Shown here one piece after another: positions 6,491-63,886 of a stretch of DNA of 64,000 bases; the stretch's first letter is position 1; each line of letters begins with the position of its first letter. The notes beneath the pieces are model-generated. The model saw only the letters and a program-made list of their open reading frames with translations. It did no database searches and was not told the DNA's origin. Source of the stretch: a virus. The stretch covers positions 2,167 through 66,166 of the IMG/VR virus record IMGVR_UViG_2816332652_000003. One strand, given 5' to 3'. Position numbers and translations under genes: made by a program.

Positions 6491-7003
6491 TGAACAAATA
6501 CAATGCAACCAAGGTGATCGTTACTGAAGACGGGACATTGTTCTCGGAATGGATCGTTAAAAAGCACAATCTGGATATAACCGGTATACGATTCGATAGC
6601 ATGGCTGAGGGGGAGTTTTTATCAGCTCCTACTCCAGCAAAAGAGGTTTGGGGAGATTAAATCCTTTGAATGTCATCCTAAATTTGTTCTTCAAGAGAAA
6701 CCGAAGGTCACTTACATTGCTGACTTCCTGGTAACGGAATTAGATGGCAGTCAGCGGGTGGTGGATATAAAAGGAGTGGAGACCTCCACATTCCGAGTCA
6801 AACTGAAACTATTCCAAGCTAAATATCCGACTTTACCAATAGATATACTTGTTAAAAAGCGAGGAGAATTCATTCCTCTTGCACAATACAAGAAGGAAAA
6901 ATCAGCGCGTAAACGGGCGGCGAATGCACTTAAAAAACGAGTAGATGAGGGGAGAATGCAAAATGAAAATCAAACATACCGTAATCAAAAACGAGGACGT
7001 TAA
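6490..7003 (+). pseudogene. DUF1064-family endonuclease-like gene, frameshifted
   Basis: MNKYNATKV...RFDSMAEGEF reads in frame to 6618; an extra T in TTTTT (6616-6620) gives a stop at 6658; the +1 frame continues YQLLL...TYIADFLV...VVDIKG. Confidence 0.8.
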
Positions 7004-7256
7004 TAAGCACCTTAACCAACAGGAGAAAGAAGACTTGCTTCGCTTGTTTCATAAAATTCAGTATGGTCGAGTATCGGAGGGGAAAGTTGGGTTCAACATG
7101 TACCTGGTCGTAAATACTGACGAAACTTACGCTGAAGATATTGTACGGATCTTACAAGAGAACGGTCATTGGGAACCAACACACGATCCAAGTCAAATCG
7201 AGTTTCGGCAAGAGGGTAATACGATGGAGCTTCCAGAAACTGAGGTGGAGGCATGA
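6957..7256 (+). CDS. Hypothetical phage protein
   Basis: ORF with RBS GAGGGGAG before ATG 6957. Confidence 0.6.
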   Translation, partial: CKMKIKHTVIKNEDVNKHLNQQEKEDLLRLFHKIQYGRVSEGKVGFNMYLVVNTDETYAEDIVRILQENGHWEPTHDPSQIEFRQEGNTMELPETEVEA

Positions 7257-7535
7257 GTGGACAAAGCCCTGAAACCAAGGGCAAAGGAAACATTTCCTTA
7301 CCTCTTGTACGAAACATTCTACTTGAACTTAATAGCCAATTGGGAGGTGTGCTCTGTGACTGAAGCTGAGAAAGATGAATTCTCCACAGATTTATCTGAA
7401 CGGTATACACAGGTTAAACAGTTAAGTTCTTCTAACAGAGAATTGATGAATACTTGGGATGCGGTGATTAGTGACTTGCCTTTAGATATAAAATCAAGGT
7501 TTGAAGAAAAACAGAGTCAAGTTTCGGCTTTGTAA
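7257..7535 (+). CDS. Hypothetical protein
   Basis: ORF within the operon. Confidence 0.5.
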   Translation: MDKALKPRAKETFPYLLYETFYLNLIANWEVCSVTEAEKDEFSTDLSERYTQVKQLSSSNRELMNTWDAVISDLPLDIKSRFEEKQSQVSAL

Positions 7536-7716
7536 GGGAGGTTTGGATGAGAGTACTGTAGATTTGAACAACTTCGATCAGCAACCTCAGGCTATTGCTT
7601 TTTATGTTGGATACACAGTAAGCGGAGTAACTGCTCAGGAAAGACAGACTCATTACGCTGTTTTAGAGCGTGTTGGGTTGTTAGAGCCTATCAAATCCGT
7701 AGTGGGTATGCAGTAA
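7501..7716 (+). CDS. Hypothetical protein (start probably 7547)
   Basis: RBS GGGAGG upstream of ATG near 7547. Confidence 0.45.
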   Translation: MKKNRVKFRLCKGGLDESTVDLNNFDQQPQAIAFYVGYTVSGVTAQERQTHYAVLERVGLLEPIKSVVGMQ

Positions 7717-7762
7717 ATTAGGTTCAAAATATAAGCATAAGGACAGGGAATAGGAAGGAAAG

Positions 7763-8440
7763 GTGGATGAGGAAATGGCCCATCAGACATTCTGGAAACC
7801 GGAGAAAAAAATGAAAGAAAAGAAAATTAGCAGCTTCGGGCGGATTAAGAAAGACAAAAAACCTGTACCGGAATGGAAGAAGGGAATATTATCTCATCAC
7901 CAATTTAGACCAGGCTCGAAGGAGCGCGGCGATTTCCCAAAAGATGTCATAGCTGAGCTTATCGAAGAATCAAACGGAGTTTGTGAATGCTGCAAGATAG
8001 TTGAAGCAACAACTACTCATCATGTCTATCCGAGAGGGAGAAAGGGACGCGGAGTTAAAACGAACGGGCTTCGACTTTGCTGGCCTTGTCATGATCGGAT
8101 TCAAACGAACGAAGAATTGCTTCAGTTTTGGATTTCAGCTTTCCGAGACAAATATGGGGATAGATTCTGGTTCGATGAACAGGATTGGGACGAGTACAAC
8201 CGTAAACAAGAGGTACAGCAAAAAGCAGATCAGGCGAAACAGAATCGCCAGCAAACTTTAAACCCGGTAAAAGAACTTATCTCTTCTGCGGCAGGACGTT
8301 CATTGAAAGCAAAAGAGGTTCGGCTTATTGAAATGATGGATGATAAACAAATCGCAATATTCGAGACTTTGATTAACGATATTGTACGTGTTGATGAGAA
8401 GTTTCAAGTGCCGTTTGGATATGGTAATTTCGATGATTGA
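7763..8440 (+). CDS. HNH endonuclease
   Basis: CECC...THHVYPRG...TNGLRLCWPCHD. Confidence 0.85.
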   Translation: MDEEMAHQTFWKPEKKMKEKKISSFGRIKKDKKPVPEWKKGILSHHQFRPGSKERGDFPKDVIAELIEESNGVCECCKIVEATTTHHVYPRGRKGRGVKTNGLRLCWPCHDRIQTNEELLQFWISAFRDKYGDRFWFDEQDWDEYNRKQEVQQKADQAKQNRQQTLNPVKELISSAAGRSLKAKEVRLIEMMDDKQIAIFETLINDIVRVDEKFQVPFGYGNFDD

Positions 8441-8521
8441 AATCAAATTAATTCATATAACAACGTAAATTATTTATTTATTCATTTAGGGGTCATCCTC
8501 AGGAAGGGAGTACAGACACAC

Positions 8522-9643
8522 ATGATCATCACAGGAAACTGCATCGAAGTGATGCCGCAGCTCGAAGCCGAGTCATTCCACACATGCGTAACATCTCCAC
8601 CGTATTGGGGCCTGCGTGATTACGGCTTGGAACCATCACACTGGTCCGAGATGACATATACGCCTATGCCGGGCCTTCCGTCACTCACAGTGCCTGAGTG
8701 GAGCGGTTGCTTGGGGCTGGAGCCTACGCCGGAAATGTTCGTTGCTCATACGGTGATGGTGTTTCGGGAGGTATGGCGGCTGCTGAGAGCTGACGGAACG
8801 TTATGGATGAATTTTGGTGACAGTTACGCAGGCAGCGGTAAAGGGGCATGGAGTAACACGGATGATCAGAAAGAGGTCTATGTACCTGCACCAGATAGTC
8901 CGCAAACAAAGATACCGAAATCTCCAAGCGGCTTAAAAGCAAAAGATATGGTTGGTATTCCTTGGCGCGTAGCTTTCGCCCTGCAGGCGGAAGGTTGGTA
9001 TCTCAGATTGGACAACATTTGGCATAAGCCTAATCCAATGCCAGAGAGCGTACGCGACCGTCCAACTAAAGCGCATGAATATATGTTTTTGTTAAGCAAA
9101 TCCGAACGATATTACTATGATGCCGAATCTATCCTTGAACCTGTATCTCCCAACACGCATGCGCGTTTATCCCAAGACGTGATGAACCAGATTGGAAGCG
9201 ACCGAGCAAACGGCGGAGCTAAGACCAACGGGAATATGAAGGCAGTCGGTAGAAAACCAAAGGCTTCAAAAGCGGGATCCGGAATCAAATACAACGAGAG
9301 CTATGAATCTGCCTTAGCGCTTCCTGTAACCCAACGTAACAAGCGCAGCGTCTGGACTGTGACAACACAGGGGTTTTCAGAAGCCCACTTTGCTACATTT
9401 CCTGAAGCACTAATCAAACCCTGCATACTGGCAGGCGCTCCGGTGGGCGGTCGTGTACTTGATCCATTCGGCGGATCGGGAACAACGCTGAAAGTCGCCA
9501 TGGAGAACAACCGGGAATGCACCATCATTGAAATGGGACCACATAACGTTGAGATAGCAGAACGGCGTACAGCGGTTGTACAGCCTACATTGATTTTTTT
9601 GAGGAAGGGGCAGAGCCTCTTCCCACCACATACCACAATATAA
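8522..9643 (+). CDS. Orphan beta-class amino-DNA methyltransferase (N4-C/N6-A)
   Basis: Catalytic TSPPY precedes the SAM-binding DPFGGSGTT; no cognate restriction nuclease adjacent. Confidence 0.92.
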   Translation: MIITGNCIEVMPQLEAESFHTCVTSPPYWGLRDYGLEPSHWSEMTYTPMPGLPSLTVPEWSGCLGLEPTPEMFVAHTVMVFREVWRLLRADGTLWMNFGDSYAGSGKGAWSNTDDQKEVYVPAPDSPQTKIPKSPSGLKAKDMVGIPWRVAFALQAEGWYLRLDNIWHKPNPMPESVRDRPTKAHEYMFLLSKSERYYYDAESILEPVSPNTHARLSQDVMNQIGSDRANGGAKTNGNMKAVGRKPKASKAGSGIKYNESYESALALPVTQRNKRSVWTVTTQGFSEAHFATFPEALIKPCILAGAPVGGRVLDPFGGSGTTLKVAMENNRECTIIEMGPHNVEIAERRTAVVQPTLIFLRKGQSLFPPHTTI

Positions 9644-50032: not shown

Positions 50033-50197
50033 ATCAGATTTTGAGAGTCTCTCAATTGTGGACTCTTTTTTTATTTTGCTTATATTTAACCTGTAAATCC
50101 GTAGCCACTCCGTAACAAAGATAAAAGATAATAAATCTATGAAGCCCTATTCCTTAATTGGAATGGGCTTATTTTCGTATAGAGAGGAGGAAAGGTC

Positions 50198-50404
50198 TTG
50201 GCAAAGATGACACATACACTCCAAGTTGAACTGGATCTGAATAAACCAGTTGAAGAATTGACTCAGGTAATCTCTGCGGTTCTTAGTTCACATTCACTTA
50301 ATCAAAAAGAGATTCTGACAGCTTTAGATTTGGAGATTGGGAATGCACTGGCAGCAATTGAGATTCAAGAGCAAAAGCAAGTGAATGAAGAAACAGGAAC
50401 TTAG
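50198..50404 (+). CDS. Hypothetical protein
   Basis: TTG start after GAGGAGG. Confidence 0.55.
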   Translation: MAKMTHTLQVELDLNKPVEELTQVISAVLSSHSLNQKEILTALDLEIGNALAAIEIQEQKQVNEETGT

Positions 50405-50443
50405 CTCAGGAAAATTATCCTTAGCAGAAATGAGGAGAACAAA

Positions 50444-50914
50444 TTGGATAAATGGAAAGCATTCTTTGCTTCATTAGGGGCGGTGACGGTGCCTGTGTTT
50501 GAATACTTATACGGTAGAGACGAAGCGGTAATTGGTTTTATGACGGCTGTTTTATTCTTCGTGATTTTGGATTGGATGTCAGGAATCAGTGCAGCCAAGC
50601 AAGATAATTCATATGGTAGTCGCTATGGGCTTGAAGGGATCTGGCGTACATTTTTTATACTGTTGCTTCCCGCCGGAGGACATTTATTAGATGTGGTGTT
50701 AAAAATGCCTGGTCTTATCTTTGGAGCCTTGTCTCTCGGTACTCTTTATCACGTAATTCAAAGCATGGTAGCTAACTCCATTAGGGCAGGATGGGGCCAA
50801 TGGATTCCACTACCGGTCTTTAACTGGTTAATCAACTGGGTAAAGTCTGAACTGGATAAAAAGATGGAACGGGCCGAATCCCGGAAAGGAGCTGGCACAG
50901 ATGACGCAACGTAA
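50444..50914 (+). CDS. Holin (toxin-secretion/phage-lysis family)
   Basis: TM segments; FVILDWMSGISAA; QSMVANSIRAGW. Confidence 0.85.
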   Translation: MDKWKAFFASLGAVTVPVFEYLYGRDEAVIGFMTAVLFFVILDWMSGISAAKQDNSYGSRYGLEGIWRTFFILLLPAGGHLLDVVLKMPGLIFGALSLGTLYHVIQSMVANSIRAGWGQWIPLPVFNWLINWVKSELDKKMERAESRKGAGTDDAT

Positions 50915-51596
50915 AATATCTCAAGCAGGAATTGCTCTGATTAAATCATTTGAGGGTTGTAAACTTACGGCATACAAGCCTGTTCAGTCCGAGAAGTATT
51001 GGACGATCGGCTGGGGGCATTACGGCTCTGATGTCAAACAAGGCCAGACGATCACGCAAGCTCAAGCTGATGCAATGCTTGTAGAGGACTTGGCCAAGTA
51101 TGAGGCTTTCGTCAATAACAAGGCTTACGTGCCAGTAATTGATCAGCTCACAAAGAATCAATTTGATGCATTGGTGAGCTTCTGTTACAACTGTGGTGCT
51201 GGTAATCTCAAAACGTTGTGTAACGGCCGTACCGTGGCCCAGATCGGTCAAAACATCACCAAGTACAACAAGTCCAACGGGATAGTATTGGCTGGACTGG
51301 TACGCCGCAGACAGGCTGAGCTTAACCTGTTTAACTCACCAGATAAAATTGTGCAGGAGGACAAGCCCGTGACATTAGAAGTAATGAAGCAGTTAGAGGA
51401 ACTAAAGACTACTGTTGAATCTCAGGCCAAGTGGATTGCGGCTCAGAAGGCTAAGGAGAACATGGAATGTCCTAAATGGGCAGAGGAAGCTTATGGATAC
51501 TATAAGGGATATATATCGGATAGAAATGGAAGTTATGACTTTTGGAGATACTTAACTATTAGTTATCGCAAAGAAAGAGGACTTAAGTCTAATTGA
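50901..51596 (+). CDS. Endolysin, GH24 lysozyme
   Basis: IKSFEG..LTAY...WTIGWGHY; QFDALVSFCYNCG; GLVRRRQAE. Confidence 0.92.
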   Translation: MTQRKISQAGIALIKSFEGCKLTAYKPVQSEKYWTIGWGHYGSDVKQGQTITQAQADAMLVEDLAKYEAFVNNKAYVPVIDQLTKNQFDALVSFCYNCGAGNLKTLCNGRTVAQIGQNITKYNKSNGIVLAGLVRRRQAELNLFNSPDKIVQEDKPVTLEVMKQLEELKTTVESQAKWIAAQKAKENMECPKWAEEAYGYYKGYISDRNGSYDFWRYLTISYRKERGLKSN

Positions 51597-51688
51597 CATA
51601 TTATTGTTGACAGAATAGTGTTTCTCTAGGAAAATTGTGGAATGGATAATCGGATAATTCACAATGATCTAAAAGAAAGGCTTGTTTA

Positions 51689-52219
51689 ATGATGAGTATA
51701 CCTGACTTTTTTGATAATTATCATTTGCCTGATGGTGTTCACGAGTGTACAATTGAAGAAATAGAACAGAGGTTCTTGTTTTCTTCAAAAAGGATTGAGC
51801 AATGGAAGTTATTCAAACAGATGCTAAATCGCCTTATTGGTTTGGGGCTTAAACCTTCGGCTATATTGATTGACGGCAGTTTTGTTACGGGTAGATTAGA
51901 ACCAGGAGATGTGGATTTTGCTGCGTTAATTCCGCCTGAAACTGTGCTAGAAGCCATGAAAACGATTGATGATCATGATAAAGCAGGTATTCAGCTTTTT
52001 ATGAATCCCGAAAATCAATTAGCATTAAGGAATCTTTTTGGCGCTCATTTGCTCTTGGCTGACAATGAATATACACTTGATCTATGGGCGGATTTTTTTC
52101 GTACTGGTGGACAAAATGGAAAATTGAGAGAACGGGATGAAGAAAGGGACCCTGAATGGGTAATAGTCCCTTCTGCCAAGGGTATACTAAAAGTGTACTT
52201 AGATGGGGGTGAAGTATGA
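51689..52219 (+). CDS. Pol-beta-superfamily nucleotidyltransferase (DUF6932-like)
   Basis: YHLPDGVHECT...ILIDGSFVT...PGDVD. Confidence 0.75.
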   Translation: MMSIPDFFDNYHLPDGVHECTIEEIEQRFLFSSKRIEQWKLFKQMLNRLIGLGLKPSAILIDGSFVTGRLEPGDVDFAALIPPETVLEAMKTIDDHDKAGIQLFMNPENQLALRNLFGAHLLLADNEYTLDLWADFFRTGGQNGKLRERDEERDPEWVIVPSAKGILKVYLDGGEV

Positions 52220-53298
52220 TGGAGAAATTCGACATTTCAGAACAGGTTAAAAAGCTTAATCTTGCTAAAGATAATTTGGAACGTATTCAGAAGGAATATG
52301 CTGACCAACCTGAGTTGTTAAGTTTCTATGAGCCCTCTGCTTCCTTCATGGTGAAATCCTTAAAGAAACAACTAAGTGAGTCTTTAGTTCATGAAACTGG
52401 ACATGGATTAGTTCTTGATGATGATATTGATCTTTGGGTTAGAATAGAAGGAGAAGAATTTCATGGAGGAAAAGGCCCAATTGGAGTAATTGGGTCATTC
52501 CTAAATAAATTGAACAACGCCAATAAATTTGCAGCTAGCGTTGTCTCCAGAATGAAAAATTTCACCGAGGAAATGCTTGAGATTGATGGTACCTTTGATC
52601 TTGCCGCTACAGCAAGTGGCAGCCTAAAATTAGGACTTAAACGTCATGAACTAAGTATTGTGAATGATGAGCAGATTAAATTTAATTTTTCTGAAGAACA
52701 TGATTCCGAGCCTGACAATTGGGAGATCCTTAAACGAGGAGCTAAACGTGAAGAGGTTTTTAACGACTCAATAAATCTTGTTTTAGCTGCGATAGCATCT
52801 GCAGAAGATGAAGACACTTTTGAGAAATTATCTGAAAGTTATGATCGAAAAGACATCTTAAAAGTAATTCATTTTGCTAAAGATTTACTTCCAAGTTCAC
52901 AATCGAATATTGAGGCAATATCATTTGAAATTGAACATCTACAATTTCCAAAAAAAATAATTCGTACTAATAAAGAAACAAGAAAATTGTTGTCTAGTCG
53001 TGCTAAAAAACTGATTCCGGATAAAGAGTTTATTAAAGGAAAAGGGATGATACGCGCTCTAGATCTTGATGAAAAGACCATAACTATTAGACCATTGAAA
53101 TACGAAGACAACATCCATGAAGAAGTTAAATGTATCTTTACAAAAGGGATTGATCTGAACGATCTACAACTATTAATTGATAAACCGATTAATTTAGAAG
53201 GATTCTTGGTTTTCTCCTCAAATAATCATTTATTAAGATTAGAGATCGAAGAATTCGAACTAGTTAAAAGCTTCAACGAAGTAACAGATACCAACTAA
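52216..53298 (+). CDS. Uncharacterised partner protein with an OB-fold-like C-terminus
   Basis: ATGA overlap with the upstream gene; GMIRALDLDEKTITIR...VKCIF...INLEG. Confidence 0.7.
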   Translation: MMEKFDISEQVKKLNLAKDNLERIQKEYADQPELLSFYEPSASFMVKSLKKQLSESLVHETGHGLVLDDDIDLWVRIEGEEFHGGKGPIGVIGSFLNKLNNANKFAASVVSRMKNFTEEMLEIDGTFDLAATASGSLKLGLKRHELSIVNDEQIKFNFSEEHDSEPDNWEILKRGAKREEVFNDSINLVLAAIASAEDEDTFEKLSESYDRKDILKVIHFAKDLLPSSQSNIEAISFEIEHLQFPKKIIRTNKETRKLLSSRAKKLIPDKEFIKGKGMIRALDLDEKTITIRPLKYEDNIHEEVKCIFTKGIDLNDLQLLIDKPINLEGFLVFSSNNHLLRLEIEEFELVKSFNEVTDTN

Positions 53299-53324
53299 GG
53301 AAAATGAAAAAAAGATAAGCAATG

Positions 53325-53362
53325 AAAAACTCTGTTTGCGTATTATCGCAAACAGAGTTTTT
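53325..53362. terminator. Bidirectional terminator (16-bp perfect stem)
   Basis: AAAAACTCTGTTTGCG-TATTAT-CGCAAACAGAGTTTTT. Confidence 0.85.
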
Positions 53363-53382
53363 AGAAATGAGCGATTAAATTT

Positions 53383-53937
53383 TTAACGTGATAATTCACC
53401 AGAACCTACATATTTATCTTTCTTACTATTCCACTTGTAATAGGCTACCGAAGTATCCCATCCTCCTTCAGGGAAATAATTCTTCCACGCTTGTCTGATC
53501 TCACCTGATTTTGATATTTGAATACTTACATCACCGATAATGGAGAGTTTCTTTTTAAGCGTACCATCCTGGTACTTAAAAACAAATAGTTCAGTGTTTG
53601 AAGGTGGGTAGTCTAACGTTATAGCAACATGTTTTTCTTTTGGAGAGATATTAATTATATGGAAGGTAGGATCTTCTTCGTTGTAGTAATTCGTATCTAT
53701 AAGTACTATTACACCTTTAGAGTTTATGAAATAAAAGTTGTTTGAGTCGGTGATCAATAAGTGTTCCTTTTTGTTATCGCCGTTCAGATCAATGGACTTA
53801 CTGACGGTAACGCGTTCTCTGGGGTATTTCTTTTCCAACAGTTTCTTTGGATTGATTTCAGCAGCATCCATTGTAGACGCTAGTAGACTGAATATGATTG
53901 ATAAGGAACATAACAGTGAAATTACTTTACGCAACAC
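53383..53937 (-). CDS. Secreted hypothetical protein
   Basis: Signal peptide; DLNGDNKKE (VCBS/FG-GAP-like). Confidence 0.7.
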   Translation of the reverse strand: MLRKVISLLCSLSIIFSLLASTMDAAEINPKKLLEKKYPRERVTVSKSIDLNGDNKKEHLLITDSNNFYFINSKGVIVLIDTNYYNEEDPTFHIINISPKEKHVAITLDYPPSNTELFVFKYQDGTLKKKLSIIGDVSIQISKSGEIRQAWKNYFPEGGWDTSVAYYKWNSKKDKYVGSGELSR

Positions 53938-53960
53938 AAGTCATCCTCTTCTTTTAAGTA

Positions 53961-54593
53961 TTATTGTACTTTTACAAACTCATCCACAAACTTTTGACGT
54001 TCATTTTTATTAAAATACTTACTACTTAATTGTGATTTCCAAGATTCAGGATCTGAATTTAAAGCGTTGAAATTTACATCGAAATAGGTTTCTGCAACGG
54101 ATTTATCCAAATCGACAGAGTATGTCTTTCCATCGAAAGGAACGGCAATATTAATAGTATCGGCAGAGGTGAATTGCTTCAAGAGCCGCGAAGATTCTTC
54201 CATAAGGATCTTATTGATTTCATCACCGGTACTGAAGTAATTAGTATAATCTTCTTCTGAAACACTTGATTGAGGATTGGCAGAGATGTAGTTTTCATAT
54301 GTATCATAGAACTCTACATTTATGTTGTGATCTCCGACTAATACTTCTTTTACAAAGGTACGTCCTCTAATATTTGCTGTATAGGTCAACACAGCTTCTT
54401 GATCTAGAATAGTAAGTTCCTTTTCTTCATCGCGTTCTATCAACTCATTCACATCCCCTTTATCACCTTGATCGTTACTTATAGCAGTTTGACTAGCTTC
54501 TGGTTCAGTTTTATCTCCCATGCTACCAATAGCGGCAACTAGTAGAACAATTAACAACCAAAACCACCATTTTTTATAAATAGGCTTTTTCAA
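53961..54593 (-). CDS. Membrane-anchored extracellular protein
   Basis: KKPIYKKWWFWLLIVLLVAAIG anchor; TTG start after GGAGG. Confidence 0.75.
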   Translation of the reverse strand: MKKPIYKKWWFWLLIVLLVAAIGSMGDKTEPEASQTAISNDQGDKGDVNELIERDEEKELTILDQEAVLTYTANIRGRTFVKEVLVGDHNINVEFYDTYENYISANPQSSVSEEDYTNYFSTGDEINKILMEESSRLLKQFTSADTINIAVPFDGKTYSVDLDKSVAETYFDVNFNALNSDPESWKSQLSSKYFNKNERQKFVDEFVKVQ

Positions 54594-54684
54594 TCTTCTT
54601 CCTCCTGATATAGTAATAATTAACAACATGAATAGTCTATCAGACCTAGGTGAAATTTTCTATAAAATAGTATGGGTGTGGAAA

Positions 54685-54906
54685 ATGAATACATATCGAG
54701 TGTTGGAAACAAATGAAGAGTTCTTTGTCGCTGCTTTATCACAGATACGTGTCTCTGTATGGCTTGTTCTACAGGATCAAGAGGTGATTATGGATTATGG
54801 AGGGGTATTAGAAGCGTACAGTGATGTATTAGTAAAGATTGCTGGAAATCGATATTTTAGAGACAAGTTTGAGTTTAGAGCGCACATAGTAATTAACTAT
54901 AATTGA
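54685..54906 (+). CDS. Hypothetical protein
   Basis: MNTYRVL...DYGGVLEAYSDVLVKIAGNRYFR. Confidence 0.55.
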   Translation: MNTYRVLETNEEFFVAALSQIRVSVWLVLQDQEVIMDYGGVLEAYSDVLVKIAGNRYFRDKFEFRAHIVINYN

Positions 54907-55922
54907 AACTGCATAAGGGAGAACGTTATAAGATGGGCAAATTGCAAGATTATTTGATGAAAATTATTTATTTGTTCTTAAAGATATCAGAATGGATAAA
55001 GAACAGAAATTTGTTGAGATGGTTACTTCAAAACAAAACAAAATTTTTCAATGCATTAGCTATATTTGTTGCTATTCTTGGTGTAGGTTTAATCCAAATA
55101 TTTAAACCGTACATAATGGACATTTCAGTTGTAAGGGAAAAAATATATGAGGACAAATTACAAAAAGTTAAAATCGGGTATTCTAAGAAATATGTTGAAG
55201 ATTCGATGGGCACTCCAGAAAGAGAACAAAAAATAGCTTGGTCAGATTCATACGGAAATGACCATTTAATAACAAGAACTGATTATATCAAAAAAGACTT
55301 TTTGTATACGGTTTTCTATAAAGATGATTTAAATGTTCTAGGGTACGGTCTAATATCAAGAAATAAAAATTTCAATCCAAGATTACCCTCAAAAGAATCT
55401 CCAGGTCTTTTGAAAAAAAGCCAAAATAGTTATTTGAGTGAGCATGGAGAGGTAAGATTTACAACATTTCACATAGGAACTAGGGGTGACGTTTCAGATT
55501 ACGAAATGGATTTTGATTACGGTTCATTAAGTACTCAAGGGATAATAACTGGGTATGGAGTTTCCGAATTTGGTTATCAACAACATAAGGATTCACTTCC
55601 GATTTATATTATAAATTCCTTGTTTAATGCTCCCTTCACTGAGAACTTTTACGACAATAATGGCTTTTACAACTTGCTAGGCAATACTGTCAGAACATAC
55701 GCACAATTTAGCGAGGTTGAAAAAAACAGAAGTATCGACCCGTCTGATGAAAATAGAAAGGTGTTGATCCCAAATGTAGTTCTTGTTTTTGATGGAACAA
55801 GCGGTTACGGCTATACAGAAATCAACAATTTTGACATAGCCTTTGAATTTATAATTGATCAACTCAAGTTTGGTTTTTTGTATGAAAGAGGAGAGTTCAA
55901 TAACATAACAGAGAGATTTTAA
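54903..55922 (+). CDS. Membrane-anchored accessory protein
   Basis: Single TM helix FFNALAIFVAILGVGLIQI followed by a large soluble domain. Confidence 0.7.
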   Translation: MKLHKGERYKMGKLQDYLMKIIYLFLKISEWIKNRNLLRWLLQNKTKFFNALAIFVAILGVGLIQIFKPYIMDISVVREKIYEDKLQKVKIGYSKKYVEDSMGTPEREQKIAWSDSYGNDHLITRTDYIKKDFLYTVFYKDDLNVLGYGLISRNKNFNPRLPSKESPGLLKKSQNSYLSEHGEVRFTTFHIGTRGDVSDYEMDFDYGSLSTQGIITGYGVSEFGYQQHKDSLPIYIINSLFNAPFTENFYDNNGFYNLLGNTVRTYAQFSEVEKNRSIDPSDENRKVLIPNVVLVFDGTSGYGYTEINNFDIAFEFIIDQLKFGFLYERGEFNNITERF

Positions 55923-56054
55923 TGAAACTGAAGTATGAATTCAGCGAATTGGCTAGTAATCAAGATTAGTACAAGGTGATTTAGCAATTAATTAAACATA
56001 TATAGACAAAAAAAATTTAGAGCAGCAAAGTATCATCGCTGCTCTTTTGAATCT

Positions 56055-56726
56055 TTAGATTACCTCTTTAACTAGACCCTCAGTGTTATTCCGTACATTA
56101 CCAACTTCCTTTGGTACCTCGTATGCTCGCATCTCAGACGCTTGATATGGCTTCAAAAGGCCAAGCAAAGACTGAACATTGTCATTATCCCTACCAAGCC
56201 ATTCCGACTCATCCTCGGGTCTTAGGATAACCGGCATACGATTATGAATGTCTTCCATAAGACTATTTGGTTCCGTTGTAATGATGGTGCACGTACTCAA
56301 TTTGTTTCCATCCGGATCTGTCCAGGTATCGTACAGGCCAGCCAGCGAGAATAGACTGTCATCCTTCATCAGAATACGCATTGGTTGCTTTTCCGTTCCT
56401 TCCTTACGCCACTCATAAAATCCATTCGTCGGTATAATACACCTCTTAGAGCTGATCAGACGTTTAAAGGCTGGCTTTTCTGCTAGTGTCTCGGCCCGAG
56501 CGTTAATCATCTTATTACCAATCTTGTCATCCTTAGCCCAAACGGGAACCAATCCCCATCGGAGTGCACCCAATCGATTGCCGTCTTTGCTCCCGATGAT
56601 CGTGGGAATGTTTTGCATGGGTGCTGCATTGTAATTAGGTTTGTACTCAAACCCATCAGCTATAGAAGCATAGTACCTGTCCATTATCGCGTCTAAGGGA
56701 TCAGTGATTGTAAATCTTCCGCACAT
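56055..56726 (-). CDS. SOS response-associated peptidase (SRAP/HMCES-like)
   Basis: MCGRF N-terminus, INARAET, GFYEW, HNRMPVIL. Confidence 0.95.
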   Translation of the reverse strand: MCGRFTITDPLDAIMDRYYASIADGFEYKPNYNAAPMQNIPTIIGSKDGNRLGALRWGLVPVWAKDDKIGNKMINARAETLAEKPAFKRLISSKRCIIPTNGFYEWRKEGTEKQPMRILMKDDSLFSLAGLYDTWTDPDGNKLSTCTIITTEPNSLMEDIHNRMPVILRPEDESEWLGRDNDNVQSLLGLLKPYQASEMRAYEVPKEVGNVRNNTEGLVKEVI

Positions 56727-56931
56727 GATAATGCCTCCTTTGAGACTCTATAATATGTAATTTTACTCAAATATTTAAGAATAGAAACGGGTAATTTGTG
56801 GAGATGTGTATCCAAAATAAAATAAAAATGCAATAAATTGGATGATATTTATAGATCAGCAAGTTTATGTTTAGACACACTTATAAGATCAGTGTATCTT
56901 GTTACGAGATTGAAACAAAAGATGTGGAGGA

Positions 56932-57744
56932 ATGATTATGAGAAAGTTGTTTACTAGAAAGGTAGGAATTTTACTTGTTGCATTTTTAATTTCTACAGGA
57001 GCTCTTTTCCAAACAGAAGTAAAAGCTGCTACAGATTATACAGGAGGATTATTGGACAACAAAGTTTTTAAATTCTTAAAACCAACAAACTTTAGTACCA
57101 ATTTAAGTGATTATGATACTTCTACTGATTATGCGAAGTTAATTACTGATAACAATGAAGCTACCTCCAATACATTAGCCATGAATAACCCTTCAAAGAC
57201 TACATACAACCAAGCGATGGTAGTTTACAAGTTTGATACTGAGGTTAAAGTTTACTCATTCATATTAAAAGCAGATAATCGTGCAACTATTACGTTTTTT
57301 GATTCTGAGGGAAAATATATACCAATTGTTTGGGACACTGCCATTGATGGTATGGTTCATGAATCCGAGACAATAGAAGGTGTTCGTTATGTTGCGTTGA
57401 CAAATCCTAACGTTAATATCGGGATTAAAGTTAGTGAATTTAATGTCTATGGAGTTCCTATGCAAGAGCCCGAGCCACAACCAGAGCCTGGCTCAGATCC
57501 ACAAGAACCATCAGGTACCCGCGCGATGCTAGTAATTACAATGACTACTGGCTTGGAGAAAGAGTTTGACCTAAGCATGCTGGAGGTAAATAACTTCATT
57601 GATTGGTATGAAGCCAAACAAACTGGGAGTGGGAAGGCATCTTATGCAATCGACAAGCATGATAATAACAAAGGACCGTTTAAGAGTCGTAAAGACTACA
57701 TCCTGTTTGATCGAGTTCTAACGTTTGAAGTGAGCGAATATTAA
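56932..57744 (+). CDS. Secreted modular protein with a Pro-rich linker
   Basis: Signal peptide; EPEPQPEPGSDPQEP linker; distinct C-terminal domain. Confidence 0.75.
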   Translation: MIMRKLFTRKVGILLVAFLISTGALFQTEVKAATDYTGGLLDNKVFKFLKPTNFSTNLSDYDTSTDYAKLITDNNEATSNTLAMNNPSKTTYNQAMVVYKFDTEVKVYSFILKADNRATITFFDSEGKYIPIVWDTAIDGMVHESETIEGVRYVALTNPNVNIGIKVSEFNVYGVPMQEPEPQPEPGSDPQEPSGTRAMLVITMTTGLEKEFDLSMLEVNNFIDWYEAKQTGSGKASYAIDKHDNNKGPFKSRKDYILFDRVLTFEVSEY

Positions 57745-57797
57745 ACAGTCAATACAAAAGGCTCCGCATTAAGTTGCGAAGCCTTTTTTGCATTATC

Positions 57798-58688
57798 TCA
57801 GACAATAAATTGATCAAATACAGGTATACGCAGTAAGCCCGATTTGGTCCAGTTCCGCATTTTGACCCTGGCTTGTATACGTGGTTCCAGGTAAACGTGA
57901 TTCTTGTCCTCTCCAGTCACAAGCTGCTGGCACACTCCGCGGAAAGCTTGCTTATGTTTTGGACTCGGGCCATGCTCAATAATCCCTACCGGACGCATCC
58001 TGCCAGTTGGATCTGGAACGGCAGCAAGCCACCCAAATTCGGCCTTTTTGTATCCTGTGATGAACACATCTGTATAGGACCAGTTAATAACCTTCAGCCA
58101 ATCCTTGGACCGTCTGCTGACGTACTGACTGTCTTTGCTTTTACCAACTACTCCTTCCATACCCATAGCCTCTATCTGAGCGTATAGATCTTCTCCAGCA
58201 CCTTCTATATAGGGCACAACTCCAAAGTTAGAGGAAGGAAGAGATAGACTGTGTAGGATCATCTTGCGTTCCATAAGAGGTAGCTTACGTAGATCTCGTC
58301 CTTGGTAGAAAAGAATATCAAATATAGCAAACGTGGCAGGCAGTTTATGAGTGAGCTGTGTTATCTTGCTGGCCTGCTTGGTGCTGAATCTACTCATGAC
58401 TGCTTCAAAGTCGTTAAGCCCTGTCTCTGGATCGGTGCAAGCGACCTCGCCGTCCAGGATAATATCAGAGTCAAACGGCAGAAGCAATTCCGGGTACTGA
58501 TGGGTGCAGTCGTTGTTGTGACGAGTGAATAGCCGGACTTCTCCAGCTTGTTGCGAATATATCAACCGGTGACCGTCAACTTTAGGTTCAAAAATGAATT
58601 CTGAATGTGAGAAGGGACCTGGTGCTGTTTCAAGTAACATAGGACTTATGAACATAAAAACACCTCTGATCCAATTATAGCGTTTCAA
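57798..58688 (-). CDS. ATP-dependent DNA ligase (LigD-type ligase domain)
   Basis: EPKVDG, ILDGEV, IFDIL, MEGVVGK, WLKV; start probably 58655. Confidence 0.9.
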   Translation of the reverse strand: MKRYNWIRGVFMFISPMLLETAPGPFSHSEFIFEPKVDGHRLIYSQQAGEVRLFTRHNNDCTHQYPELLLPFDSDIILDGEVACTDPETGLNDFEAVMSRFSTKQASKITQLTHKLPATFAIFDILFYQGRDLRKLPLMERKMILHSLSLPSSNFGVVPYIEGAGEDLYAQIEAMGMEGVVGKSKDSQYVSRRSKDWLKVINWSYTDVFITGYKKAEFGWLAAVPDPTGRMRPVGIIEHGPSPKHKQAFRGVCQQLVTGEDKNHVYLEPRIQARVKMRNWTKSGLLRIPVFDQFIV

Positions 58689-58726
58689 TACAATAGATAG
58701 AGGCGGTAAGTTATGGAATTGTCATC

Positions 58727-59011
58727 TTAATTCTGCGATGATTTTTCAATGAGCTGTTCTAAAGTTAAATCTTTGTTATTAATCCACCACGATGCAGAAG
58801 TCTTATTTTGGAGCGGCAACAAAGTCTCTAAATTTTTATCTTTGTCGTGGGCTTGATTTAAAAATTTGATCCTGATATCTCGTGCCCATTTAATCTGAGC
58901 TACAGAACCCTTGAGGTCTGGTATATTATAGTGGATTTCGATTTCACTTGCTAGGTTATTTGAATAATCTTCCATCTCTTTAGAGCGTACAATCTTAACC
59001 AGGATAATCAC
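58727..59011 (-). CDS. Small hypothetical protein
   Basis: PDLKGSVAQIKWARDIR...ASWWINNK. Confidence 0.6.
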   Translation of the reverse strand: MIILVKIVRSKEMEDYSNNLASEIEIHYNIPDLKGSVAQIKWARDIRIKFLNQAHDKDKNLETLLPLQNKTSASWWINNKDLTLEQLIEKSSQN

Positions 59012-59380
59012 CTCGTTTTTAGTTTATAAGGATTATTAGTATTGTTTAGAAGAGTTTCTTCATATTGATTAGCCTGTTTTTTTATAGAATATCTTTTTCA
59101 TTCTTCTTTCTCCTGATATAGTAATAATTAACAACAAAACATAGTCTATCAGACCTAAGAAAATGTTTCTATATTTATATTGGGATAATTTACAATAATA
59201 TCGAATTAGGCTATAATATAACCAAATCCGAAAGTATCGGTGAAAAAGCACTGCTGGCAAACGCTCGCAGTGCTTTTTTTGTATTATTTTATATATGTTT
59301 CATATTATATGGGTGTTTATATACATAAAAATATTTAAATGGTATATTGTGTATCTAAAATGTAATTAGGAGGAAATAAA

Positions 59381-59884
59381 ATGAAGAAACTAGCAAGTGG
59401 TTTAATAGCAGGAGCTTTGTTACTTTCACTAACAGCAGGGGTAGCATCAGCTGATTCAAGTGTACATAATCTTCCCAGTGTACCTCCTGTAAACAACACA
59501 AATGTAATTGTGCCATTTGGTCAAGATAAACCAGGTACTAATGCTTCTACACATGATTTATCTGTAAGTAGCTATAACTATCAAGTACAAAAAGTTGGAT
59601 ATGAGGTTTTTACTGACAAGTGGCTTACAGGTGCTACTTCAATTAAAGTTCAAGTACTCAATTGGGCTTTGGTAAATAATGGTGGTGGGGCAACCAATAA
59701 ACTAATTATTTCTATTTATAGTGCAAATGGTTTAGTTGCGAATAAACAAATTAATCCTAATAATACTCTTTCCCATACATTTACTGGCCTGAACAAAAGC
59801 ACTAAATATTACGTTAAATTCTCTGTAGATACTGGAAATGATAATACCTACTCCTTTAACGGCGCTATATCCTCAGTAAAATAA
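59381..59884 (+). CDS. Secreted hypothetical protein
   Basis: Signal peptide ending ASA; RBS GGAGG. Confidence 0.75.
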   Translation: MKKLASGLIAGALLLSLTAGVASADSSVHNLPSVPPVNNTNVIVPFGQDKPGTNASTHDLSVSSYNYQVQKVGYEVFTDKWLTGATSIKVQVLNWALVNNGGGATNKLIISIYSANGLVANKQINPNNTLSHTFTGLNKSTKYYVKFSVDTGNDNTYSFNGAISSVK

Positions 59885-59916
59885 TATTTTGTATTAATGT
59901 AGAAAGGCTATGGACT

Positions 59917-60456
59917 TTGTCCGTAGCCCTATTAATTTTTGAAAGGAGTACTATGAGACGTTTGTTAAACAAAAAAATAGTAAACTATATATTTTACATC
60001 TATATATTTTGCTTAATTAATTTTGTAGTTGTTAAATTTTTTGGAGACTTCGACTCAATAATTGCAAGAATTAATGGTGTTCTAGAACAAAGAAAATTTT
60101 TTGGAACTTGGAATTATTCATTTAAATTTTTTAGTACAATTTCTACTGCGATAAGCTCATATAAACAAGATCCAAGTTTAGGACTTGCCATAAAACTATT
60201 CATCGCAAATATTCTATGTTTTGTACCTCTGGGGTATTTATTGGCTTTAAAATTAGAAAAGAATTCAATGATTAGAGTGGCATTAATTTCTCTGGCTATA
60301 ATCTTATGTATCGAGGTAACACAATTTATAACATGTCTCGGTATTGCAGATGTAGACGATGTAATCCTTAATATGCTAGGTAGTGGATTAGGGTACATTC
60401 TTTTCGTTGTAATTGAGAGAATATATCCTTTGAAATCAAAAATAAATAGAATGTAA
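59917..60456 (+). CDS. VanZ-like membrane protein
   Basis: ANILCFVPLG, IEVTQF, DVDDVILNMLG. Confidence 0.85.
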   Translation: MSVALLIFERSTMRRLLNKKIVNYIFYIYIFCLINFVVVKFFGDFDSIIARINGVLEQRKFFGTWNYSFKFFSTISTAISSYKQDPSLGLAIKLFIANILCFVPLGYLLALKLEKNSMIRVALISLAIILCIEVTQFITCLGIADVDDVILNMLGSGLGYILFVVIERIYPLKSKINRM

Positions 60457-62293: not shown

Positions 62294-63886
62294 ATGGTAA
62301 TGGCAGATTCAGAGTGTAATCAAAATGCCTCAGGACTTTGTTCTGAGACCGAAGGGAACACAACGACCGCAAGCGGGTTTGCTTCTCACGCGGAAGGATA
62401 CCAAACGACCGCAAGTGCATCTGCTTCCCATGCCGAAGGATATCAAAGCAGCGCCAGCATGGATTCAGCCCATACGGAAGGAAGCCATACACTCGCCTCG
62501 GGAGCTGCATCTCACGCCGAAGGGTATATGACGCCGGCTACAATCGATGCGGCCCATGCGGAGGGAGCCTATATAACAGCATCCGGTTATGAGGCCCATG
62601 CTGAAGGTTACCTTACCGTATCATCAGGACACGCTGCCCATGCTGAAGGCTCCCGAACCACTGCATCAGGATATGGAGCTCATGCGGAGGGTGCTGATTC
62701 AGATGCGAGTGGAAGTGCTTCTCACGCTGAAGGAGTAGGGGCGGCGGCTGTCGGCGATGCATCCCATGCGGAAGGTACGAATACAACAGCACTTGGGGCA
62801 GGGGCTCATGCTGAAGGGCAGTTTACAATAGCCAGTGAAGATGCTTCTCATGCTGAGGGGTTTCGAACAACAGCAAGTGGGATATATTCTCATGCCGAAG
62901 GGTCTTATACATTATCTTCTGGAATGTCAGCGCACGCAGAAGGTGGTTTAGGTAATACGGCTTCAGGAGAATACTCTCATGCGGAAGGAGTGGGTACGAA
63001 AGCTCTTGGCGGTGCTTCACATGCTGAAGGTCAAGCTACTAATGCAGCATCTCATGCCGAGGGTGGATCGTCATTAGTTAGCGGTGTATATTCCCATGCA
63101 AGAGGTCAAGAAACGAGATCAACCGGTACAGCTTCAAGCTCAGAAGGCGGCTTAACTCAGGCTAATGCAAATTATTCACATACTGAAGGGAACTTTACTA
63201 ACGTTCTTTCCGATCATGTTGCCTCACATATAATGGGCATAAATGGAGCAACGTTATACCCTGCTTCATGGCATTTAGCCAATGGTATAAGTCCTCGCTA
63301 TGGATTAGCCGCTGTACTCCAAGGTTCAACCGGGAATCTGTATATTGATGGAACTGTTATGTCACCTGCGGCTGATTACGCAGAAATGTTTGAAACAGTC
63401 GATGGGCAGCCAATTGAACCGGGATATTTCGTGACCCTGGATGGTGATAAAGTTCGGAAAGCAACAAGTTCAGATGACTATGTTGCAGGTATTGTCAGTG
63501 CCAGGCCGTCATTTATAGGGGGAGCCAGCCACCTAAATTGGATAGGCAAATATGAAACAGATGAATGGGGCAAGATCCAATACGAAGACAGAGTGGTTCC
63601 GGAGCAGAAGGATGAGCGGGGAGAAGTTATAATACCAGCTTATACAATCAACAGTGCTGTCATTAGCACCTCTTATGACCATTCACGCGAATATGTCTCC
63701 CGCATAGATCGAATGGAATGGGTTGCCGTAGGAATGATGGGTAAACTCCTTGTTCGGGATGATGGAACCTGCCAAGTGGATGATTACTGCCGACCCAATG
63801 ATGAAGGAATTGCAACTGCTGCTGCTGAAGGGTTCCGAGTATTAGCAAGAACAGGAGCCAATCAGATTAAAGTCCTTGTTAAATAA
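62294..63886 (+). CDS. HAEG-repeat protein with a peptidase-G2 autoproteolytic C-terminal domain (probably chromosomal)
   Basis: More than 20 (S/A)HAEG 14-aa repeats; ADYAEMFE; EWVAVGMMGKLLVRDDG. Confidence 0.85.
   Translation: MVMADSECNQNASGLCSETEGNTTTASGFASHAEGYQTTASASASHAEGYQSSASMDSAHTEGSHTLASGAASHAEGYMTPATIDAAHAEGAYITASGYEAHAEGYLTVSSGHAAHAEGSRTTASGYGAHAEGADSDASGSASHAEGVGAAAVGDASHAEGTNTTALGAGAHAEGQFTIASEDASHAEGFRTTASGIYSHAEGSYTLSSGMSAHAEGGLGNTASGEYSHAEGVGTKALGGASHAEGQATNAASHAEGGSSLVSGVYSHARGQETRSTGTASSSEGGLTQANANYSHTEGNFTNVLSDHVASHIMGINGATLYPASWHLANGISPRYGLAAVLQGSTGNLYIDGTVMSPAADYAEMFETVDGQPIEPGYFVTLDGDKVRKATSSDDYVAGIVSARPSFIGGASHLNWIGKYETDEWGKIQYEDRVVPEQKDERGEVIIPAYTINSAVISTSYDHSREYVSRIDRMEWVAVGMMGKLLVRDDGTCQVDDYCRPNDEGIATAAAEGFRVLARTGANQIKVLVK

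Follow-up and report, generated by a model that had tools for sequence, protein, structure and literature searches.

A prophage gene pair assigned to a divergent Bacillota branch of the PDC-M63 phage-defence candidate

The DNA analysed here is a 64,000-nucleotide stretch (the window, to which coordinates without a prefix refer) that makes up most of a 67.5-kb provirus record of IMG/VR. Its subject is a pair of adjacent + strand genes located behind the phage endolysin gene: gene A (51689-52219), assigned by Pfam, PADLOC and an AlphaFold2 (AF2) model as a 176-amino-acid (aa) minimal nucleotidyltransferase (NTase) of family DUF6932 that resembles PDC-M63A, and gene B (52216-53298), which encodes a 360-aa soluble partner and is placed by profile comparisons and an AF2 model as a divergent member of the PDC-M63B superfamily. 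Judged from these sequence and model comparisons, the pair is a divergent Bacillota branch of PDC-M63, a catalogued, unvalidated phage-defence candidate (PDC), and not a new kind of system. The pair is a mobile, swappable cargo cassette of a Paenibacillus-type prophage and is probably conflict-related.

Family assignment and linkage of the two genes

Gene A was recognized by the Pfam family DUF6932 (PF22014) at an E value of 1.5e-23 (84.3 bits, against a cut-off of 27) and by the PADLOC PDC-M63A model PDLC04744 at an E value of 8.5e-10 (36.8 bits; residues 13-139), with a further weak match to phrog_9194. The Pol-beta GS..DxD motif that a preliminary description of this locus had read in it is present, as DGSFVT at residues 62-67 and GDVD at residues 73-76. 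Within it, 25 close homologues of gene A show no variation at G63, S64, D74 and D76; a set of 22 DUF6932 proteins that covers all partner contexts likewise keeps these four residues, together with R35, P72 and G165, unchanged. For the AF2 model of gene A (predicted local distance difference test (pLDDT) of 93.9), the AlphaFold DB clusters that come closest bear the name ‘Polymerase nucleotidyl transferase domain' (template modelling (TM) score 0.6-0.7; E 1e-10), and a 403-aa cluster named ‘Alpha/beta hydrolase' matches it via its N-terminal part. Among solved structures, 2rff was the best match (Z 5.7), followed by HI0073, MntA antitoxins, ANT enzymes and Pol X, while a search of the PDB by sequence with the gene A profile returned nothing meaningful. 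Gene A is classed as a Pol-beta-type minimal NTase with an intact signature.

Gene B has no match in Pfam or NCBIfam and no meaningful match in PADLOC or PHROG. A word search found 12 close homologues, all in Bacillota, and a profile search of 1.84 billion representatives returned 189 clusters, 41 of them at E<1e-30. Distant relatives in this profile match the PADLOC models PDC-M63B and PDC-M32A. Moreover, two intermediates, P0088 and P0097, match both the gene B profile (1e-29 and 1e-16, respectively) and the PDC-M63B models (1e-4 and 2e-5). When a 113-sequence gene B profile was aligned with the 36-sequence canonical family, hhalign gave a probability of 96.3% (E 1.5e-9) over 277 collinear columns, and hmmsearch with the expanded gene B profile scored canonical PDC-M63B proteins at 30-38 bits. 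By these profile links, gene B is a divergent PDC-M63B superfamily member. The novelty claimed for the system in the preliminary description does not survive these matches, that of gene A to PDC-M63A and that of gene B to the PDC-M63B superfamily.

The PDC-M63 entry of PADLOC comprises an A and a B component and belongs to the PDC set from Payne et al. (bioRxiv 10.1101/2024.01.29.577857), whose candidates were picked for being embedded in BREX, DISARM or restriction-modification (RM) loci; M63 is not named in the main text of that preprint. A 2026 paper on BREX in Nucleic Acids Research does not cover this gene pair, and a literature search found no paper mentioning DUF6932 or PF22014. Canonical PDC-M63 loci were found in two of the Bacillota genomes (L015 and L020), with A proteins at 3e-31 and 2e-31 and B proteins at 9e-15 and 3e-23, respectively. 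The pair in the window shares with PDC-M63 a DUF6932 NTase followed directly, on the same strand, by a partner of 310-360 aa, usually with overlapping codons; a partner whose parts run in the order hairpin, central part with a G-S dipeptide, and C-terminal barrel; and carriage on prophages and other mobile DNA. However, gene B is only 12-13% identical to canonical B and ~40 aa longer, it carries in its central part a GKGPIG loop that is invariant in and specific to the Bacillota branch, and it lacks the canonical NQPSEKGKIP motif. All members found of the present branch come from Bacillota (Paenibacillus, Sporolactobacillus and Psychrobacillus).

The two genes were linked wherever they were examined. 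In 16 of 16 independent loci, including three reached only via remote relatives of B, gene A lies directly upstream of gene B on the same strand, and B starts within ~30 nt of the A stop codon, with frames that overlap or abut in 10 of the 16. That homologues exist for A and B alike, and that no examined locus has the genes apart, makes the pairing more than chance; the co-occurrence elsewhere on which the preliminary description had staked its proposal is thus found. In the window, the overlap takes the form of an ATGA stop/start (52216-52219, + strand), which is read as translational coupling of genes A and B. The two proteins evolve at different rates: in 106 of 120 locus pairs, conservation is higher for A than for B, as in the comparison with the P. 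crassostreae copy (76 versus 52%). One further copy from a Bacillota genome (L028:148-1878), in which the NTase gene is split over two reading frames and the B gene is intact, is probably decaying.

Predicted structure of the partner and known nucleotidyltransferase systems

As the preliminary description had it, gene B encodes a soluble protein of 360 aa with no transmembrane segment (top 19-residue Kyte-Doolittle mean of 0.86; isoelectric point of 5.1). Its AF2 model (pLDDT 79.5; predicted TM score 0.74) can be divided into three parts, all encoded on the + strand: (i) residues 1-65 (52216-52410), an antiparallel helical hairpin with helices at 4-27 and 32-61, for which only generic coiled-coil matches were found (Z 8-9); (ii) residues 66-269 (52411-53022), a central part, alpha/beta and helical, that lacks a fold assignment and that no PDB match from Foldseek or VIA-align covers; (iii) residues 270-352 (53023-53271), a five-stranded barrel like the oligonucleotide/oligosaccharide-binding (OB) fold. 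The barrel matches the C-terminal domain of SilB (Z 8.7; root mean square deviation (rmsd) 2.5; 79 aligned residues), PriB (Z 8.1-8.3), and RPA and Ten1 (Z 7.5-7.8). The ‘OB-fold-like' label that gene B was first given thus fits residues ~270-352 and not the rest of the protein. DNA ligase, which came up as a fold match of gene B, was dismissed at an rmsd of 12-13.

Many uncharacterized bacterial and phage proteins in AlphaFold DB, ESM Atlas and BFVD have the overall arrangement of gene B. An AlphaFold DB cluster named DUF4868, after the domain of KwaB in the Kiwa system, ranked 13th (E 6e-8; TM score 0.32); gene B has no match to DUF4868 in Pfam, and there is no KwaB structure among its PDB matches. 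Across 149 members of the B superfamily, merely three positions exceed 90% conservation, namely G135 and S136 (the dipeptide being conserved in 99%) and G277 (92%). This near absence of conserved residues makes an enzymatic role of gene B improbable.

The barrel is acidic, with a net charge of −4 in gene B and a mean of −5 among the 12 homologues, in all but one of which it is acidic; the sole basic stretch of gene B is at residues 226-269. The term ‘OB-like' is therefore not to be read as nucleic-acid binding, and the charge of the domain does not favour a classical surface for binding nucleic acids or nucleotides. This bears on a signalling scheme of the kind known from CBASS, Hailong and Panoptes, under which A would make a nucleotide or short oligonucleotide that the barrel of B would bind. 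The intact Pol-beta-type signature of A and the resemblance of the barrel to PriB, SSB and RPA are in line with such a scheme, but the acidity of the barrel is not, and B carries nothing that looks like an effector module (no transmembrane segment and no nuclease, TIR, SIR2 or phospholipase match). Moreover, A with its 176 aa is far smaller than the CD-NTases of CBASS, matches no CD-NTase or Cap model in PADLOC, and aligns with CD-NTase structures at Z 2.7-3.2. In Hailong, the NTase is paired with a transmembrane effector (HalA), whereas B has no hydrophobic segment. Hence the signalling scheme is regarded as very unlikely for this pair.

A closer resemblance is to the pairs of a minimal nucleotidyltransferase (MNT) and a HEPN protein. 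In MNT-HEPN operons, the NTase gene comes first and the partner gene second, with overlapping codons. The pair in the window shares with MntA/HepT (type II/VII toxin-antitoxin systems) this gene order, a small Pol-beta-type NTase with the G-S-x9-11-D-x-D signature (G63-S64 and D74-x-D76 in gene A), and the presence of MNT antitoxins of HEPN-MNT pairs among the minimal NTases that are the nearest solved structures to A (7aer, 7ae2, 8xeh and 1no5). On this analogy, B would be toxic or growth-arresting and A would silence it by covalent nucleotidylation, for example at S136, with loss of A during infection setting B free; that G135-S136 provides the only conserved hydroxyl of the B superfamily agrees with such a modification site. 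Yet no HEPN family was found in gene B by Pfam or PADLOC (the R-x4-6-H motif being the HEPN criterion), nor any other recognisable toxic domain, and its predicted fold is a different one. Gene A, for its part, has a family-specific N-terminal extension (IPDF..YHLP.G) and C-terminal elements, and its structural scores against these NTases are low (Z 3-6). Furthermore, almost nothing apart from the dipeptide and G277 is conserved in B across the superfamily, which would be unusual for an enzyme toxin. Silencing of a toxic B by A is thus judged unlikely.

Neither A nor B matches, in Pfam or PADLOC, the components of AbiE or MenT systems, which consist of a DUF1814-type NTase toxin with an AbiEi or MenA antitoxin. 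With no HEPN domain, no transmembrane segment and no CBASS or AbiE match, the earlier view that the partner is unlike the effectors of known NTase systems is upheld.

Alternative partners and proposed action of the module

To place the NTase in its wider context, other partners of DUF6932 are relevant. A DUF6932 gene above the cut-off was present in 10 of the 401 sampled Bacillota genomes. In an alternative arrangement (L021-L026), the gene directly downstream encodes a protein of 145-166 aa, which carries a clear Xre-type helix-turn-helix (HTH) in four of five cases, and three of the five such cassettes add a calcineurin-like phosphoesterase. These three-gene cassettes (L023:295-2154, L024:468-2285 and L026:312-2010) consist of a DUF6932 NTase, a 165-166-aa partner (of Xre-HTH type in two of the three) and a calcineurin-like metallophosphoesterase with a weak PADLOC PDC-S10 match; they represent a second, apparently undescribed context for DUF6932 NTases. 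In addition, a 400-aa protein (L027:1492-2694) joins an N-terminal DUF6932 domain to a C-terminal extension of ~260 residues, which has no Pfam match and contains an S-H-S-F-G stretch.

The Xre-HTH cassettes share with the pair in the window the same NTase family with its invariant residues, a partner gene directly downstream and a partner that starts with a helical stretch of ~65 residues, but their partner ends in an HTH and not in a central part plus OB-like barrel. A common hairpin was also sought by sequence between the N-termini of the Xre-HTH partners and gene B; the best score, 8.9 bits, was too weak for it to be accepted. The catalytic signature is invariant in all of these arrangements; the NTase stays constant, and what changes is its partner. 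These contexts touch on both schemes weighed above. The metallophosphoesterase of some DUF6932 cassettes could degrade a signal, as a signalling scheme would have it. The Xre-HTH proteins are typical antitoxins, and that A also pairs with them suggests A to be the regulated component, contrary to a MntA-like role in silencing a toxic B.

We consider it fairly probable that the pair is a conflict module with A as its catalytic core and B as its regulator or sensor. A is taken as the active component because its partners are variable, because those of the sister cassettes are of Xre type and because conserved residues are nearly absent from B. The module would be expressed in the lysogen and would act in phage exclusion, abortive infection or toxin-antitoxin-like addiction. 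As the constant catalytic component, A would nucleotidylate either some macromolecular target or B itself, and B, as the faster-evolving partner, would bind A and control or aim it; a phage-derived cue met by B would then release or activate A.

Several observations weigh against this reading or against the assignments beneath it. The sole published test of the candidate, in which PDC-M63AB was deleted in E. coli NILS69 and infection by 10 phages was followed, revealed no defence, infection being unchanged. That MNT antitoxins are the closest solved NTases points, by analogy, to A being a neutralizer and not an effector. The structural matches of gene A, although consistently to NTases, are weak (best Z 5.7), and no third catalytic carboxylate was identified in gene A by the comparison of 22 DUF6932 proteins. 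Gene B has no match to any PDC-M63B model at E<=1 in PADLOC v2.0.0, so PADLOC would not call the locus as PDC-M63; the possibility raised at the outset, that the pair is already catalogued, thus largely holds, through the PDC-M63A match and the superfamily link, with the failure of gene B against these models as the exception. Alignment of the small sets by hhalign (12 versus 17 sequences) gave a non-significant probability of 1.4%, and for this reason the family link of gene B depends on the intermediates. Finally, public sequencing runs labelled ‘RNA?' that contain this DNA show DNA-like, flat and complete cover. A rhizosphere metatranscriptome contains one 251-nt contig that spans 52770-53018, for which DNA carry-over is possible, so that transcription is not established by it.

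A more general scheme can be drawn from the exchange of partners, to which we assign a very low probability. In it, the DUF6932 NTases may act in general as an effector core that is programmed by its partner, the interchangeable forms of which (hairpin with OB-type B, hairpin with Xre-HTH, or a fused C-terminal extension) would dock by an N-terminal helical hairpin common to them; the switch may be set by nucleotidylation at the invariant Gly-Ser of B; and the Bacillota branch may be a prophage-encoded exclusion system with a mechanism undescribed for validated defence systems.

Prophage setting and implications

In the window, + strand tail genes are followed by a holin gene (Phage_holin_4_1; 50444-50914, +), a lysozyme-type endolysin gene (PF00959; 50901-51596, +), a 92-nt spacer and then genes A and B. 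The spacer contains a promoter-like site, TTGACA-17-GAAAAT (51607-51635, +), whose agreement with the consensus at 10 of 12 positions makes it the best of the region. Its identification is by consensus only, and the promoter scan yielded no more sites in total than shuffled sequence does. Downstream, a predicted bidirectional intrinsic terminator (53325-53362) separates gene B from a convergent 184-aa gene. It has a perfect 16-bp stem, a 6-nt loop, an A-run on the 5′ side and a T-run on the 3′ side, and its hairpin has a folding free energy of −23.2 kcal/mol (z −6.4), with none of 200 shuffles folding equally well. The two-gene unit with its ATGA overlap, own upstream spacer and strong terminator is thereby confirmed. 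Within gene B, a 33-nt stretch (52925-52957) that occurs once in the window is all that extra contigs of three isolate runs share with it, these contigs diverging on both sides; it may reflect a strain variant or a short word shared with another place in the genome.

Comparison with a sister prophage (L042) by blastn delimits the cassette. Homology extends over 50091-51492 at 89% identity (the endolysin being 90% identical) and resumes from 53384 at 77%, and the intervening 51493-53383 has no counterpart there. In its slot, L042 carries 2.76 kb of unrelated DNA (L042:6593-9351) with three open reading frames of 407, 219 and 162 aa (6880-8103, 8072-8731 and 8749-9237 of L042), which have no Pfam or PADLOC match and may be another cargo or defence cassette. 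The cassette is flanked by the endolysin gene on one side and, on the other, by a conserved gene close to the end of the prophage. Its GC content, and that of the gene pair, is 0.30-0.39, compared with 0.43-0.47 in the lysis genes; the exchange in L042 and this low GC together mark the cassette as mobile and accessory. The cassette also has a direct repeat of 19 nt on its two sides (51653 and 53390; 79% identical), which was attributed to chance.

The pair lies behind lysis genes in the window, L001 and L039, beside an integrase or repressor gene in L002, L004 and L041, and, in L003, in the vicinity of a resolvase and an AbiJ/Abi_C gene. It was found behind the endolysin gene in none of 25 phage contigs with related endolysins that were scanned downstream, and tblastn of 50,697 GenBank phage records found no relative of A or B of this subfamily. 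These distributions bear on whether the pair serves the phage in some way other than defence, be it counter-defence, a control on how the prophage is maintained or induced, or the modification of phage or host nucleic acids in the lytic cycle. Carriage on prophages behind lysis genes or beside lysogeny genes would suit such a role, as would the negative outcome of the family's sole published defence test and the occurrence of the gene B fold in uncharacterized phage proteins. On the other hand, the cassette is dispensable, being replaced in the sister prophage; the GenBank phage records lack both subfamily proteins; the pair also occurs near the resolvase and AbiJ/Abi_C gene; and PDC candidates were chosen from among genes embedded in BREX, DISARM or RM loci. 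A phage-serving function is accordingly given a low probability.

The low-GC stretch (0.30-0.36) runs on past the gene pair, over 53383-55922, where there are three genes with no assigned family, encoding 184 aa (−), 222 aa (−) and 339 aa (+). The first two each start with a hydrophobic stretch and are also present in L042 (77% DNA identity over 53384-54400). GC climbs again near 56000, and beyond the low-GC stretch lie a SRAP (YedK-like) gene (56055-56726, −), an ATP-dependent DNA ligase gene (57798-58688, −) and a VanZ-like gene (59917-60456, +), which look like host genes. As the genes at 56055-60456 look host-derived, the prophage end may be near 56000; the provirus record extends further. 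Past these apparent host genes, a 530-aa protein (62294-63886) nevertheless combines a Peptidase_G2 domain (an autoproteolytic intramolecular chaperone) with a YadA-head repeat, as seen typically in the spikes or fibres of phage tails.

Pairs of the PDC-M63 type are widespread among prophages. That the Bacillota branch escapes the PADLOC models shows the catalogue to understate both the size and the diversity of the family. The branch offers handles for experiments in D74 and D76 of the invariant signature of A, in the superfamily-invariant S136 of B and in the natural cassette swap of the sister prophage, which could serve as a control. Should the pair prove to exclude phages, a further mechanism would be gained, one based on an NTase whose partner is unusual and not an enzyme; should it not, a popular database candidate would need to be reconsidered.

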